From the IMG/VR virus record IMGVR_UViG_2875697941_000001: a stretch of 64,000 bases of DNA; one strand, given 5' to 3'. The notes beneath the pieces are model-generated. The model was not told the DNA's origin, made no database searches, and worked only from the letters and a program-made list of their open reading frames with translations. Source of the stretch: a virus (taxonomy: Duplodnaviria; Heunggongvirae; Uroviricota; Caudoviricetes). The translations under genes and the position numbers were made by a program. Below are positions 31,091-64,000 of the stretch, piece by piece. Within the stretch, counting starts at the first letter, position 1. Each line of letters begins with the position of its first letter.

Positions 31091-34000
31091 TTATGCGTAT
31101 TGTTGGATGACGGCCAGAACGTCCGCCACGTTGTGTTTTGTCTCGATAATCCACCAGTTACCCGGGAAATCGCTGTTCTTCGCCTTCGCTGGCAGCCAGC
31201 GAGCGCCGAATTTCGCCTTGATTGCGTCTTTCGCACGGAAAAGAACGCCTTTCATGCCTGAGGCTTCCTGAAGCCCAAATACCTCGCCAGCGGCGAATTT
31301 CGGTGCGTACATCATCTTCAGGTCGGCGGTGGATACGCGATAATTCAGACCAAGAGACTGAGCTATGCTGGTGGCATCACCCTGTATTGATGATAACTCT
31401 TCTTGTTTCTCGTTTCTGGCGGCAATTTCTTCCTCCGTGATGTTGCCAAGGGCCAGGTTTATCCGATCAGCGTCGGCCTGTTTCTCTTCATCGGTGCGCC
31501 CGGCAAGAACCGTGTTAATTCTCTGCAATATCTCCACATGATTCTTGCGCATGCTGAGCAATTCCGGCGTAACCTCGTTAAGATCCACCAGCCCAAGGAT
31601 GGCAAGGTCGGAAAACATTGATACCAGGTTGTAGGTCATGCGATAGCTGAGTTGGCCATAGGCTGATGGCAACTGCACCGCATCCATTTGATAGGCATCC
31701 ATAAATTTAGAGCCGGCGTTTACGACATCCGCAATTGCAGGTGTGATTTTCCCTGTGGTGGCGGCCTCCCTGATTGCTGTTACCCACGATTGAGTCAGTG
31801 CGGCGACTGCATGATTCAGATTGGCTTCCCGTTCTGCTGCGATGCGCGCGTTTGCTGCGTCCATTGCCTGCTTGATCTCGGCTTTATTGCTGTAAATGCC
31901 AATGGTGCCAAACTGTGCTGTGGTGATCTCATAATCTGACGCCCGGAACTCATGGGTACCGAAAATGGCATTGGTGACCTCAAGTTCAGAATCCCCGTTA
32001 CGAGTAGCCCCCTGGCTTGTTTTCTCCGGCATTTTTGCGATCGCATCCGCTATTTTCTCCTGAATTGCTTCAGGGGATAGCGTATCTCCGTATGACGCGA
32101 TTACATCGCCATAATTGGAGCCAAACAATTCAACCAGGAATGTTTCTGCCGAACGGATCTGGCGGTTATTCCCTTCCGACATCATACCAAGCACCCATTT
32201 TGCAATTGACGACTTCAGCGCGCCGTCACGGCGATCCGGGTAAACCGCATGCTTCAGTGGGTCCGTATAGGTACCAACAAAATCAATGCTATAGCCTGAC
32301 TCTGTAGTCTGAACGCCGTATGAGTCAGTGATTTTGATCATGCCGCGCTGCTGGAAACGGTAGAAATCGTCACAGGAAATGATGTCGTTAATCCCGGCGA
32401 TGGAGACGCCACCACTGATTTTCTGCATAACAGCATCTTCATCGGGAGTTACATCCACCTGTTTATCCAGCGTCTTCACATCCCAGTTACCCGATTTGGT
32501 GCCTCTTAAGGTAAAGATGATCTCCACGTCTGCGCGCTGGCTGTCGAAGTCCAGCGACTTAATGCGAACGATATCACCGGCACAATCGTAGTATTGGCCT
32601 ACACGCCATGAGCGATCGCCGATAACAAGGAACTCATTCGCATGGTTAACCAGATCAGGATCAACATCCAGAATGCCTTTATTTATTGCATCCTCCACCA
32701 GCGGGCGCAGGCGTTTGATATCCGTCGCGGCCTTCTGAGTACGGTTCAATAATTTCTCATAGCGGGAGATGGCCTGAGAGATATTAGCCTTGCGCTGAAT
32801 GGCGCTTTTCAACGACGCGCGATACTGTGCTAACAACATACGGTCTGTGTGATGGACACTCCCCCAGCGGGCCTTCCAGTCTGCGTTATCCGCTGCCTTG
32901 GCCATTGCCGCCTGTTTGAATTTAGCTACCTCGGCGGTGGTCTTTTCAAGTTCCGCTTTGCTTCGCTCTAATTCAGCGGTAAGTACCTCCACATCCTCGC
33001 CAGCTGCGTGCTGCGCCTTGATGTAGTTCTGAAGGTCGATAGTAGCCTGTTCTTTCTGGCGAGCGCGTTTCGCAGCTTTCGCCTTATCCATTTGAACCTG
33101 CATCATTGCCAGACGTTCGCCGTCATCCTTCGCGGTATACATCTGCATTTCGATCATGTCATTGGCGTCGGCGTTCTCCATTTCTGACTTATCTGAACGG
33201 AGGATATCGGAGATCCAGCCTGCTTTACGCTTCAGCGTCTTCAGTCGGTATTCATCGAAAGACCCCTTGCCGCAGTAGTAGTGAACGCGAACGCTTGCAC
33301 GGTTGGAACCAACTCGGGCACCGCGACCGTTACGCTGTGCGATACTGGCTGGTGTCCACGGCAACGTCAGGTGGTGGATATCCGTCGTTCCTCGATGCAG
33401 GTTGATACCCACCTCTGCCTTTTTGTTGCAGATGATGATCGGAGTCCGGCCCTCCTGGAAGTCGGCTGCAATCTTTTCCAGACCGCCCAACGACATTTCA
33501 TTTTGCTGCGCGATATAGGCGTCATACAGAGCCATTTGCTCGTTGTATTTCGCTATCTGTGCATCTGTTGGTTCATCCGGTAGCTCTTTCGGCGGTTTAA
33601 CCGCTTTCAGTTTCTTACCGGTTTTACCTGCCTCGGCAACCGTCTGAGCATTCAGGATCCCCACCTTTGAAGGTTCAAGGTTTAGAGCATTGCAGATAAT
33701 GCGCTTGAGCTTCTGGTGCTGCGTTTTTTCATCGGTGAAGATGATTTGCTTACCTTCCGGGAAAAACTCCTTCAGCGTGGCGATCAGCTTCGCGTATTTG
33801 GGCGTAACGGGGTGAGTTACGGTCTGTTCGTCAATGCCAAACCTGGCCAGGCGCTTATTCACTTCCTGCTCGAACGCTTCCGGAACCTGCAACTGAATAA
33901 ACTCGCCCTTATCTATCAGGGAGTATTGCGATTGCTGCGTGATTGAATCATCACTGTCGTCGTCTTCGCTGGTGGCTTGTTTAGGCAAACTGTCCGCCAG

Positions 34001-59928: not shown

Positions 59929-60284
59929 AGCACCACGTCCTGTGTGATAGTTATATCCCTGATACGAATGGATATTTTCAACTTATCAAAAGCATCTCCC
60001 TCGGCTACTGACAAGCCAGAAATCGGTATGTCAGGTAAATCTACCGTCAGTTTTTGCAACAGCATTGCCTCAACCGCAATTTGAACATGCGACAAGTTGG
60101 TCGGTTCGTGTTTAAACTGCGGTAAAACATTGCCCCATGACGGATCTCCGTATACCTCACCCTGATAAGTGTTTAGCCACTCATATAAACGAGCGCCCCA
60201 GGCCTCCTCCTGGGACTCATACGTTTTTACGCCGGATAACTCCAGCGTCAGCAAAGGATCAATTTCGTTATTGTTGGCCATCAA
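59925..60284 (-). CDS. small structural protein (P1 pmgA position; gpW/gp25-like?)
   Basis: 119-aa ORF overlapped on both sides. Confidence 0.5.
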   Translation of the reverse strand: MMANNNEIDPLLTLELSGVKTYESQEEAWGARLYEWLNTYQGEVYGDPSWGNVLPQFKHEPTNLSHVQIAVEAMLLQKLTVDLPDIPISGLSVAEGDAFDKLKISIRIRDITITQDVVL

Positions 60285-63200
60285 TCAACTCTCGCGTAGT
60301 CATTCATCAACGGATCATCAATTGACAGTGGTACCGTGCGCATAACGCCCGGCTGAGGCGTGCTGACCTTTACGACAGTTCCCTGGCCTTTCGCCGAGTC
60401 TTTGGTGTGCTCTTCAATCCTGGCAAGCAATGAGGTCATCTGCGCAAACAGCCGCTTCGTTTCACCATCAAGTGAAACGGTATTATCAGCCAACTGCATT
60501 GTCGGCTTGGCACCGGAACCGCCAAGGTCACTAATAACCTGCCCGTCTATCTGCATACGACCGGTTGGTTGCTGCAAATCGTTGGCGGCAGTCGTCACCT
60601 TGGACGTGGAGGCTGGTTCAGTCGCATTATTTTTCCGCATCCCCGGCGAGTTGCGGAGTTTATCGAATAGTCCATCAATCCCCATTTGTGCGCCGAGTTG
60701 GTCAAAGTAACTTGAGTTGCTGGCCACCGGACGCGCCTCTTCAACTGGCATCGGAGTATCAACATACACATTGCCAGCTGCTGTTGCGGTCCCCTTCCCT
60801 CGTGCACGTTCTTCGAGCGTTCCCTGAACGACTTCCCGACGCATACCCCGGCCATTCATGAATTTGTTGACCAGATCGTTAACGCCAACAGCATTACCTA
60901 TTTTGTCTACCAGACCGCCTTTCTCAAACGGGCTATCACCATGGGTAAACGCCAGGCCAGTAGACTGATCGATAACAGCGTTATCAGGCAGTGGTCCCCT
61001 CACTCCATATTGCGCCCCACCCTGTGCTCCTGCTCCAGGTGTATAGATGTCACCACCTAAATAGCGAGCACGATGAGTATTGACCTTGATCGCGTACTCA
61101 CGGTTTTCTTTCGATAAGTCACCGGTGCCTTTTTTCCACTTATTAATAGTGCCAAACCCAGCGTTATATGCAGTTATAGCCTCGTTTAAATCTCCATTGG
61201 CTTGCTTCAGATACTTGCTCATGAGAAGAGCCGCAGCTTCTGCCGATTTCACAGGATCAAATGCATCCGGTTCCGATATCCCAGTCTCTTTACGAGCAAT
61301 ACTCGTGAACTGGAACATCCCGAGTGCGCCACCACTTAACTTTCCATCTGGTGATCTTGTAAGCGGAGACTTTGCGTTAGGATCCCCTCCTGATTCAGTT
61401 GCAGCAATCGAGTAAAGAGTGCCTTCTGGAAGGCCATATTTATTCTCTAGTTCAGCAAAATACGGTGCCAACTTATCTAGATTTGCCTTACCTTCAGCAC
61501 CAAGATTTCCGACTTTTACATCCAAGTTGCCATTGTTGTAGGTATCCGCTGCTTTCTGAATGTCATTCCTGGTGCCAGTGGTATTAAGCGACGATGATGA
61601 CGAGCTATTTTGTCCAATAGCATTATCAATTTTCTGCAACGCGCTATTGCCCGTTTCTACGGCATTTGCATTGATAATCTGATTAGCAGTTTCTTTAACT
61701 GTTTTATTGCTATCTTTCGCCGTGTCCAGTGCCGCATTTATCACGCGGGTAACAATATTAGTCTGTTTGGCATCGGATTCAGTTTTAGAATCAGATGTCT
61801 CCTGGTGGCTATTAACCGGAGCTTTTAACTCTGGAGTGATTTCTTTCGCATTAGCCTCGCCGATCGGATTGGGTATTTTTGATACAATCATTGCCGCAGG
61901 GGTATTTTTAACGGCATCAACCGCTGCATCTAATGCTTTACCAGGTAAATTTTTAACCCCATCCCAAATATTACCAGCCGCCTCTTTAATGTGTTTCCCT
62001 GGGTTCTTAATGAAATCAATTGCACTATCAATTGCATCACTGAAAACCTGTTTCAGGTTATCAACAGTAAAGAAGTCTTTGATGGCATCCAGCTTTTCAA
62101 GCAGCTTATTAGATGTATCGCTAAACCATGCTGAAACAGCATCACCAATCTTTGCTGTGTAATCTTCGAACTTGGTAGAAATGGTGTCGCCAAGGTTAGA
62201 AATATATGTTTCTAAGTTGGTAATCCCACTATCAATGGCCTGGGCAATACTTTCCGTCGAAAATGATTGCAACATATTGCCGATATCCTCAAATCCAAGT
62301 GATTTGATAACCTCACCAATGGCGCTGCTAATACCAGATACCAGTCCCCCCATATCAAGAACATTGGCTAACGTATAAGCGGCTTTTTGCTGGAATGATG
62401 GATCTTGTCCTGATTTAAGCCCAAACGCTCGACGTTGCGCTTCTGTATCATTCCAACCGGTTACCGCATCATAAATACCTCCAGCCACTGTGCCGACTAA
62501 GGGAATTGCGCGTAACGCCCCTTTACCAACTGCCTTTAATCCAAGTTTACCTGCTGCCCGGGCAGCCAAATCTCCACCTTCATGGGCGATAGTCTTCTTG
62601 CCACCACCGCGTAGCATTCCTACAAGTTTCTTTGCCCCCAGAGCGCCAAAAGCGAGTGCTCCAGCTTTTTTCAGCATGCCACGCCCCATTAACAACGACG
62701 CGACGCCACCGGCCCCCTTCCCTAACAGGCTAAATAGTTTGGACAGCAAGCCGCCCTTCTTTTTCCCGGTGTTTTTGGCTATCTGATCAAGGGCGCTGAG
62801 AATCTTGTCATTGCCCTCTTTAATTTCGCTGGTCTGCTCCTGAAGTTCCTGAACTGTCCGTTTTTGGGTGTTAACCTGAACGACATCGGCACTATTTTGC
62901 GATTTACGCCTAAAAAAACCTTTTCTACGGCTGTTATCGTCATTGCCACGAATCACATCGGCAATAGACTTTCTGGCACCATTAAGCGATCCACCAACTT
63001 CTTTTGATATCCCGCCAAGCTCCTTCCCTGCTGCCCACAATGGACCAGCAACGGCATAACCTAACGCATCAACGGCACGAGTCTCTGAAGGGTTACCTAT
63101 GCCTTCAGCTACTTTTGACAGTTTTTTTAATAAACCTGATTCAGCATTTAGACGCTCATCATCCTCTTTGTGCCTGGCCTTTTCAGCACGTTCAGCACGG

Positions 63201-64000
63201 GCATCTTCCGCTGCGGCCTTACTCCCTGACTTTCCAATAAAACGACCACGCGCATCGCGTTGGTTTTGGCTTTTTTGCGCACCGCCTTTTTGATCGAACA
63301 TTTCGCGAGCGTGTTCGGCTGCTTCGGTCCGTTGTGCCTTTATATCCTCTGGTATAGCCTTCCTGCGTCGTTTTTTACCCTTTGGTGTAGTTGATTTGGC
63401 CTGCTGTTCCTGTTGAGCAATGCCCTCCTGAACTACACGAGAAACGTCCCCTAAATTAAGCCGTTTCATTGCGTCAACAATAGGGTCCACTGATGGCGCA
63501 TTGGCCACAAAGTCTGGCCGGGAATTTTCGATTGTTCGATTTAATGCCGACACACTGCGAGATACTGGGTCAACCGTTGCAACGCGTTCCCCTTTCAAAT
63601 CACGAGCGAGTTTGACCGTTTCTAACCGCTGTGCTTTAACATCCTCTGTTATTGCCTCTCTTCGTCTATTTGGGGGATTGTGCGCTGTTGGTGCAGCCTG
63701 CTGTGCACGGTTAGTGACTTTGTCCTCCCGTATACGAGAAACGTCCCCTAAATTAAGCCGTTTTATTGCGTCAACAATAGGGTCCACTGATGGCGCATTG
63801 GTCACAAAGTCAGGACGTGAATTTTCGATTGTGCGATTTAATGCCGACACACTGCGAGAGACAGGATCAACAGTTGCAACTCGTTCCCCTTTCAAATCTT
63901 CAACAGCTTCCCGAATACCTGCAAGCTCTTCCAGCTCTTTCGCGCTGGCGGTTTCAACTGTCCTTATAACATCGTCAATATTGGCGTTTTTTCTTTCCAT
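60281..64000 (-). CDS. sit: Sit-like injection transglycosylase / tape-measure protein; start codon at window edge
   Basis: 1239 aa; lytic transglycosylase (SLT) motif ...YSIAATESGG...GALGMFQFTS...AYNAG; Gly-rich tape-measure-like middle; N-terminal 99-aa tandem duplication; ATG at 64000-63998. Confidence 0.85.
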   Translation of the reverse strand: MERKNANIDDVIRTVETASAKELEELAGIREAVEDLKGERVATVDPVSRSVSALNRTIENSRPDFVTNAPSVDPIVDAIKRLNLGDVSRIREDKVTNRAQQAAPTAHNPPNRRREAITEDVKAQRLETVKLARDLKGERVATVDPVSRSVSALNRTIENSRPDFVANAPSVDPIVDAMKRLNLGDVSRVVQEGIAQQEQQAKSTTPKGKKRRRKAIPEDIKAQRTEAAEHAREMFDQKGGAQKSQNQRDARGRFIGKSGSKAAAEDARAERAEKARHKEDDERLNAESGLLKKLSKVAEGIGNPSETRAVDALGYAVAGPLWAAGKELGGISKEVGGSLNGARKSIADVIRGNDDNSRRKGFFRRKSQNSADVVQVNTQKRTVQELQEQTSEIKEGNDKILSALDQIAKNTGKKKGGLLSKLFSLLGKGAGGVASLLMGRGMLKKAGALAFGALGAKKLVGMLRGGGKKTIAHEGGDLAARAAGKLGLKAVGKGALRAIPLVGTVAGGIYDAVTGWNDTEAQRRAFGLKSGQDPSFQQKAAYTLANVLDMGGLVSGISSAIGEVIKSLGFEDIGNMLQSFSTESIAQAIDSGITNLETYISNLGDTISTKFEDYTAKIGDAVSAWFSDTSNKLLEKLDAIKDFFTVDNLKQVFSDAIDSAIDFIKNPGKHIKEAAGNIWDGVKNLPGKALDAAVDAVKNTPAAMIVSKIPNPIGEANAKEITPELKAPVNSHQETSDSKTESDAKQTNIVTRVINAALDTAKDSNKTVKETANQIINANAVETGNSALQKIDNAIGQNSSSSSSLNTTGTRNDIQKAADTYNNGNLDVKVGNLGAEGKANLDKLAPYFAELENKYGLPEGTLYSIAATESGGDPNAKSPLTRSPDGKLSGGALGMFQFTSIARKETGISEPDAFDPVKSAEAAALLMSKYLKQANGDLNEAITAYNAGFGTINKWKKGTGDLSKENREYAIKVNTHRARYLGGDIYTPGAGAQGGAQYGVRGPLPDNAVIDQSTGLAFTHGDSPFEKGGLVDKIGNAVGVNDLVNKFMNGRGMRREVVQGTLEERARGKGTATAAGNVYVDTPMPVEEARPVASNSSYFDQLGAQMGIDGLFDKLRNSPGMRKNNATEPASTSKVTTAANDLQQPTGRMQIDGQVISDLGGSGAKPTMQLADNTVSLDGETKRLFAQMTSLLARIEEHTKDSAKGQGTVVKVSTPQPGVMRTVPLSIDDPLMNDYARVD
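63320..63913 (-). repeat. tandem duplication (2 x about 297 bp) in 5' end of sit
   Basis: residues about 30-128 and 129-227 near-identical (LKGERVATVDPVSRSVSALNRTIENSRPDFV(T/A)NAPSVDPIVDA(I/M)KRLNLGDVSR...). Confidence 0.6.

Follow-up and report, generated by a model that had tools for sequence, protein, structure and literature searches.

A tandem repeat of 99 amino acids, variable in copy number, at the N-terminus of Sit, the presumed tape-measure protein of P1-like phages

Background

In phage tails, the C-terminus of the tape-measure protein lies in the baseplate and its N-terminus marks the end of tube growth, with each ring of the tube adding a rise of roughly 4 nm. Work on lambda gpH by Katsura and on T4 gp29 by Abuladze in 1994 is said to have shown that the length of the tape measure alters the length of the tail, and in-frame length changes in Afp14 do so as well. 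In TP901-1, deletions of repeats within the tape measure shorten tails linearly, and the N-terminal 154 amino acids of the protein, which lie apart from this repeat ruler region, are essential for infectivity (PMC5099701). It is accepted that tandem repeats account for part of the length variation of tape measures (PMC13585406).

Phage P1 is a classical model, and resistance genes are widely carried by P1-like phage-plasmids. The identity of the P1 tail ruler was long debated, with gp6 and Sit as the candidates; Sit is a virion protein by mass spectrometry and is now regarded as the tape-measure protein (PMC9024508). In the cryo-EM structure of P1, in which the tail comprises 52 tube rings and 53 sheath rings, Sit was assigned this role but was not resolved in the map (PMC12810830), so that the position of its N-terminus is taken from other phages. 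The protein also carries a lytic transglycosylase (SLT) domain at residues ~750–900 of 1140, ~240 residues from the C-terminus (PMC9024508, PMC12810830).

Here we describe a tandem repeat in a sit gene that stands at the end of a 64,000-nucleotide stretch of viral DNA (IMG/VR record IMGVR_UViG_2875697941_000001; hereafter, the window). The two-copy Sit of the window is real, in-frame, and old, and multi-copy forms are carried by roughly 30–40% of natural P1-like elements. As in the tape measure of TP901-1, lambda gpH, T4 gp29, and the tape-measure units of mycobacteriophages, the repeat consists of in-frame tandem units whose number differs among relatives. Unlike those systems, in which the repeats are central, the unit in Sit is 99 aa long and lies at the extreme N-terminus behind a cap; it also belongs to a contractile tail and shows a one-, two-, and three-copy polymorphism within one species-level gene pool. 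The Sit repeat is therefore a new instance of a known phenomenon—length variation of tape measures through tandem repeats—that stands out for its frequency in relatives of a model myophage. None of the papers searched describes the repeat, but the proteins are already in RefSeq.

Results and discussion

The sit gene and the architecture of its repeat

The start codon of sit, an ATG, forms the final three bases of the 64-kb window. The gene and its parts are as follows:

60281..64000, minus strand: sit, tape-measure / injection transglycosylase, 1239 aa plus stop (from the list of open reading frames and the translation)
61103..61462, minus strand: SLT lytic transglycosylase domain, aa 847–966 (Pfam PF01464, E=4e-24, 84.9 bits)
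63899..64000, minus strand: N-terminal cap, aa 1–34, MERKNANIDDVIRTVETASAKELEELAGIREAVE; unique, and retained ahead of the repeats whether an allele has one, two, or three copies
63734..63898, minus strand: core of unit 1, aa 35–89; 53/55 aa and 154/165 nt identical to core 2
63602..63733, minus strand: linker 1, aa 90–133, IREDKVTNRAQQAAPTAHNPPNRRREAITEDVKAQRLETVKLAR; diagnostic of multi-copy alleles, with 61% nt identity to linker 2
63437..63601, minus strand: core of unit 2, aa 134–188 (from the repeat search, offset scan, and core comparison)
63305..63436, minus strand: linker 2, aa 189–232, VVQEGIAQQEQQAKSTTPKGKKRRRKAIPEDIKAQRTEAAEHAR; orthologous to the sole linker of P1 Sit, with 7/132 nt differences

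By sequence identity and gene order, the window gene is the orthologue of P1 sit, as its preliminary description as a Sit-like transglycosylase had proposed. It is 96% identical to P1 sit at the nucleotide level, and its first 1201 nt are ~96% identical to the DNA of P1, P7, RCS47, and SJ46. The protein matches PHROG 2533 (E=0), with profile positions 34–133 matched twice; its SLT domain scores far above the Pfam cut-off for PF01464 of 21.3 bits, and the motifs ATESGG, GMFQF, and AYNAG can be read in the translation. A pmgA-sized open reading frame lies directly downstream in the window, as in P1, and the order pmgB–sit–pmgA–bplA is seen both in P1 and in the identical plasmid pEC258-2, the upstream side lying beyond the window. 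This plasmid encodes the identical 1239-aa protein (RefSeq WP_094320453.1), with 100% identity over the 1201-nt query.

Three approaches agree on the tandem duplication of ~99 aa that had been noticed at the N-terminus. Self-comparison of the first 300 residues of Sit gave 75 identities at an offset of 99, versus no more than 28 at all other offsets from 50 to 150; a direct-repeat search recovered a 212-nt repeat (63390–63601 and 63687–63898) at a spacing of 297 nt and 85% identity; and BLASTP aligned the two units without gaps at 71/99 identical residues (72%, E=3e-49). The homologous stretch spans aa 35–232, which sets the best register at aa 35–133 (63602–63898) for unit 1 and aa 134–232 (63305–63601) for unit 2, placing the repeat 15 nt to the left of the span first proposed for it (63320–63913). 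The 297-nt repeat was missed by Tandem Repeats Finder at a minimum score of 30. The two units differ at 63 of 297 nt.

These differences are unevenly spread, and the initial impression of near-identical copies is accurate for the 55-aa core (DLKGERVATV...LNLGDVSR; 165 nt) but not for the 44-aa linker. The 11 nucleotide differences between the cores comprise nine synonymous and two non-synonymous changes, whereas the linkers share 43% of their amino acids. Each linker has a variable, proline-rich start and a conserved basic end (RRRxAIxEDxKAQR), the residues conserved between the two being found mostly in the second half (RRRxAIxEDxKAQRxE...AR). In the cap, 26 of 34 positions are invariant in an alignment of nine sequences that includes a homologue only 49% identical to Sit. 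Scans with Rfam and for promoters and terminators found nothing relevant within or antisense to the repeat. A 13-nt palindrome inside sit, ACGCGCATCGCGT (63248–63260), has a terminator-like score on both strands, probably by chance.

Comparison with other Sit alleles

P1 Sit (YP_006507.1) has 1140 aa, so the excess of about 100 aa that had been noted for the window protein is exactly 99 aa. In a global alignment, the two proteins are separated by a single gap that corresponds precisely to window aa 35–133, with 41–50 identities per 50 aa elsewhere. Since the linker of the lone P1 unit is of the linker-2 type, what the window has in addition is the unit carrying linker 1. The orthologues of P1 and P7 thus resemble the window protein in being ~96% identical and collinear outside the repeat and in sharing its SLT domain and gene order, and differ from it in having one unit, where the window has an additional core and linker 1 inserted after aa 34.

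In most natural relatives, the unit is present once. Among named elements, P1, P7, RCS47, and SJ46 have one unit, so that two copies are not a feature of all homologues; the window, phi456, and 673R5 have two; and pEC2_5 and 813R1 have three. The Sit proteins of phi456 (WNL49372.1) and pEC2_5 (WP_250663835.1) show the same repeat architecture as that of the window. Database entries for multi-copy Sit are labelled merely “transglycosylase SLT domain-containing protein” or “Sit,” and the multi-copy form is under-represented in profiles and annotation derived from laboratory P1, among them the single-copy PHROG 2533.

The three-unit sit of pEC2_5 is an intact, annotated coding sequence of 4023 nt. 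In vB_EcoM-813R1 (ON470617.2, 3899–7911), the gene is split into five coding sequences by frameshifts, which are probably sequencing errors, because a three-copy Sit is encoded when the locus is read across frames. Two places matching linker 1 were counted in ~8 PLSDB records and nine E. coli genomes, counts that are approximate and include one confirmed three-copy allele; none of the 470 E. coli genomes with sit had more than two such places.

The sit gene is also mosaic outside the repeat. Relative to phi456 Sit, blocks of the window protein at aa ~400–500, 650–750, and 850–900 drop to 24–34 identities per 50 aa, and there are small indels, including one of 10 aa within the SLT region. Further upstream, in pEC258-2 and phi456, the sim superimmunity region that precedes pmgC is replaced by a DUF5384 gene and a hypothetical gene. 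Across the loci compared (L005–L085), this variable sim/DUF5384 region lies ~2.2–2.5 kb upstream of sit, beyond the window.

Age, selection, and recombination

Core 1 and core 2 differ by a dS of 0.25 and a dN of 0.017, and judged by the resulting dN/dS of ~0.07, both cores are under purifying selection. The linkers have diverged much further (dS ~0.94, dN 0.47), with a dN/dS of ~1 in the first half and ~0.2 in the second. By comparison, the window and P1 alleles show a dS of only 0.043 and a dN of 0.008 over the 1500 nt downstream of the repeat. The contrast between 0.94 and 0.043 means that the extra unit either far predates the split of today's P1-like sit alleles or entered from beyond the pool that was sampled; either way, the suggestion that the duplication arose by recent slippage does not stand against these values or that of the cores.

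To trace how copy number changes, we surveyed core and linker haplotypes in 84 loci and the window. Two-copy alleles are spread over at least four flanking backgrounds, each of which also holds one-copy alleles. Linker 1 is nearly invariant among its carriers (0–2 differences in 132 nt), linker 2 shows as many as 14 nt differences, and none of the surveyed alleles has linker 1 as the only linker of a single copy. Clean hybrids between unit-1 and unit-2 core haplotypes occur, and a few one-copy alleles bear a linker 2 of the type seen otherwise only in two-copy alleles, a pattern that deletion revertants would produce. In pEC2_5, the core of the middle unit is of unit-2 type at its 5′ end and of unit-1 type at its 3′ end and is followed by linker 1, which is the product expected of an unequal crossover between misaligned two-copy alleles. 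Taken together, the hybrid cores, the one-copy revertants, and the three-copy allele with its hybrid middle core indicate that the 165-nt core is the site of unequal homologous recombination that shifts copy number.

The additional unit could have either of two origins. In unit 2, the 3′ half of the core resembles the core of one-copy alleles, and the 5′ half has synonymous variants specific to multi-copy alleles; the P1 core is of unit-1 type at its 5′ end and of unit-2 type at its 3′ end. Compared with one-copy alleles, what sets multi-copy alleles apart is a contiguous block of 297 nt—the 3′ half of a core, linker 1, and the 5′ half of the next core—with a switch point between core nt 65 and 80. 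This block fits equally well with an ancient duplication that the P1 lineage later lost by deletion and with the import of a diverged unit.

Searches for a donor found linker 1 in no other context. A degenerate, back-translated pattern for linker 1 recovered only standard two-copy P1-like sit from IMG/VR and JGI metagenomes; matches among GTDB species-representative genomes were confined to Escherichia and two tiny contig ends; and tblastn against phages and plasmids showed linker 1 in no allele with a single copy. At the protein level, a one-unit HMMER search of 1.84 billion representative proteins gave five matches, four of them P1-like Sit proteins or fragments (one chimeric, P0019); the fifth, a repetitive surface protein (P0022), was rejected as spurious, so that the search detected no relatives of the 99-aa module outside P1-like Sit. 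A word-indexed protein search returned mainly partial Sit fragments, together with one distant homologue that has a single copy (P0017, the 49%-identical sequence in the cap alignment). The N-terminal region of Sit matches no Pfam family, and a sequence search of the PDB was empty.

Possible consequences for tail length

Since Sit is regarded as the P1 tape measure, an effect of the repeat on tail length is a reasonable hypothesis. With the units placed between a conserved cap and the remainder of Sit, it is most simply supposed that each of them lengthens the ruler. We give about an even chance to this reading, in which each 99-aa unit would extend the ruler, and hence the tail, by about 15–18 nm. 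The module would be part of the ruler, the cap would represent the head-proximal end at which tube polymerisation stops, and an extra unit would move this stop signal outward. At 1.5 Å per residue, 99 aa would correspond to ~15 nm, whereas scaling on 52 tube rings per 1140 aa would give ~18 nm, or ~4 (about 4.5) extra tube and sheath rings per unit; the length per residue is uncertain, because an AlphaFold2 model of Sit aa 1–350, itself of low confidence (pLDDT 44.6), shows short helices split by proline-rich coil and not one long helix. Alleles with one, two, and three units would then yield a series of discrete tail lengths.

Two sets of figures exist for the P1 tail itself: the 2022 proteome paper argues from a tail of 120 nm (PMC9024508), whereas 52 rings at a typical rise of 4 nm come to ~200 nm, for which Sit at 1.5 Å per residue is too short. 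That the rings at ~4 nm exceed 1140 aa at 1.5 Å suggests that the whole of Sit is required to span the P1 tail, with little to spare. The papers on phi456 and JL22 give no tail-length figures.

It is conceivable, if rather unlikely, that the alleles with one, two, and three units produce tails that differ in steps of ~4 rings, that unequal recombination converts one allele into another, and that the alleles persist at intermediate frequency because the favoured tail length depends on the host or envelope. Under such an allelic series, the one-copy allele of laboratory P1 may have arisen by deletion from an older two-copy form, as its core, of unit-1 type at one end and unit-2 type at the other, would suggest. 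The natural one-, two-, and three-copy alleles offer a ready test of Sit as the ruler, of the length per residue in a contractile tail, and of the share of the N-terminus in the measured length.

A less probable but still serious alternative is that the module is a tolerated, length-neutral expansion: a flexible, head-proximal segment outside the measured part of the ruler, in which additional copies add binding sites or slack. Such a module might, with similar tentativeness, dock to the presumed chaperone PmgB, to the tail terminator, or to the DNA end by way of the basic RRRK stretch. The strong purifying selection on both cores is what would be expected of an interaction module, and this conservation suggests a specific role in binding or folding over that of a plain spacer. 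The low-confidence model, only partly helical and with proline-rich breaks, is also in keeping with this alternative, as are the essential N-terminus of the TP901-1 tape measure, distinct from its repeat ruler (PMC5099701), and the position of pmgB, encoding a proposed tape-measure chaperone, immediately upstream of sit (PMC9024508). Against it, viable in-frame length changes altered tail length in tape measures that have been tested experimentally (TP901-1, PMC5099701; also lambda, T4, and Afp), and P1 Sit, already short for a tail of 52 rings, leaves little room for segments that are not measured.

It is improbable that the module acts instead in infection, after ejection into the envelope (in forming a channel or piloting DNA, for instance), with its copy number and divergent linker kept by diversifying selection. 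The pressure would be, for instance, escape from superinfection exclusion of the Sim type or from another host barrier, a proposal to which we likewise attach a low probability. The dN/dS of ~1 in the first half of the linker and the intermediate frequency of the polymorphism across many backgrounds are compatible with this, the neighbouring sim region is highly variable (PMC9603915), and two-copy alleles are enriched beside the DUF5384-type upstream variant (10/20, versus 8/59 for one-copy alleles). However, the association is incomplete, with two-copy alleles also found beside simC-type and other variants, and confounded by linkage over ~2 kb, to which it is likely due; and the near-invariance of linker 1 is unlike the product of ongoing diversifying selection.

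Distribution of multi-copy alleles in sequence databases

Multi-copy sit recurs in several sequence collections. In PLSDB, three independent complete plasmids match the 1201-nt sit query at 100% identity, and 86 match it at 99% or more; linker 1 is present in 137 of the ~480 records that carry the sit 5′ region, and linker 2 was matched in 456 records. Among complete E. coli genomes, 198 of the 470 carrying sit have linker 1, as do 19 IMG/VR contigs (of 93 sit-bearing stretches) and 12 contigs from JGI metagenomes. Linker 1 is also present in 3 of 20 GenBank Punavirus records. The phage phi456, with two copies, makes plaques, so two-copy Sit works.

An assembly artefact, or a very recent replication slippage unique to the window genome, has a negligible probability: short-read assemblies do break at the repeat and many database Sit proteins are partial, but with 63 differences in 297 nt the copies cannot be a single one read twice, the identical sequence recurs in three complete plasmids, carriers of the repeat number in the hundreds across three collections, and the linkers have diverged to a dS of 0.94.

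The repeat appears to break short-read assemblies: a series of partial proteins (P0003–P0015) and two contigs, one of 337 nt ending at Sit aa 34 (L088) and one ending at aa 26 (L089), stop at or near it. Sit fragments in an “Acinetobacter idrijaensis” assembly and in a Bacillota metagenome-assembled genome are probably contamination. Two database proteins are fusions. P0019 (1009 aa) begins within linker 1 and continues through unit 2 and ~100 more Sit residues before passing, after “...AAGKELGGI,” into an unrelated long sequence. In P0018 (493 aa, from Logan assemblies, with four members), the first 28 residues of Sit (63917–64000) are joined to a remainder that is 96.8% identical to a protein encoded ~31 kb away in the window (31094–32494, minus strand); it could be a variant with a large deletion or rearrangement, or a chimeric contig.
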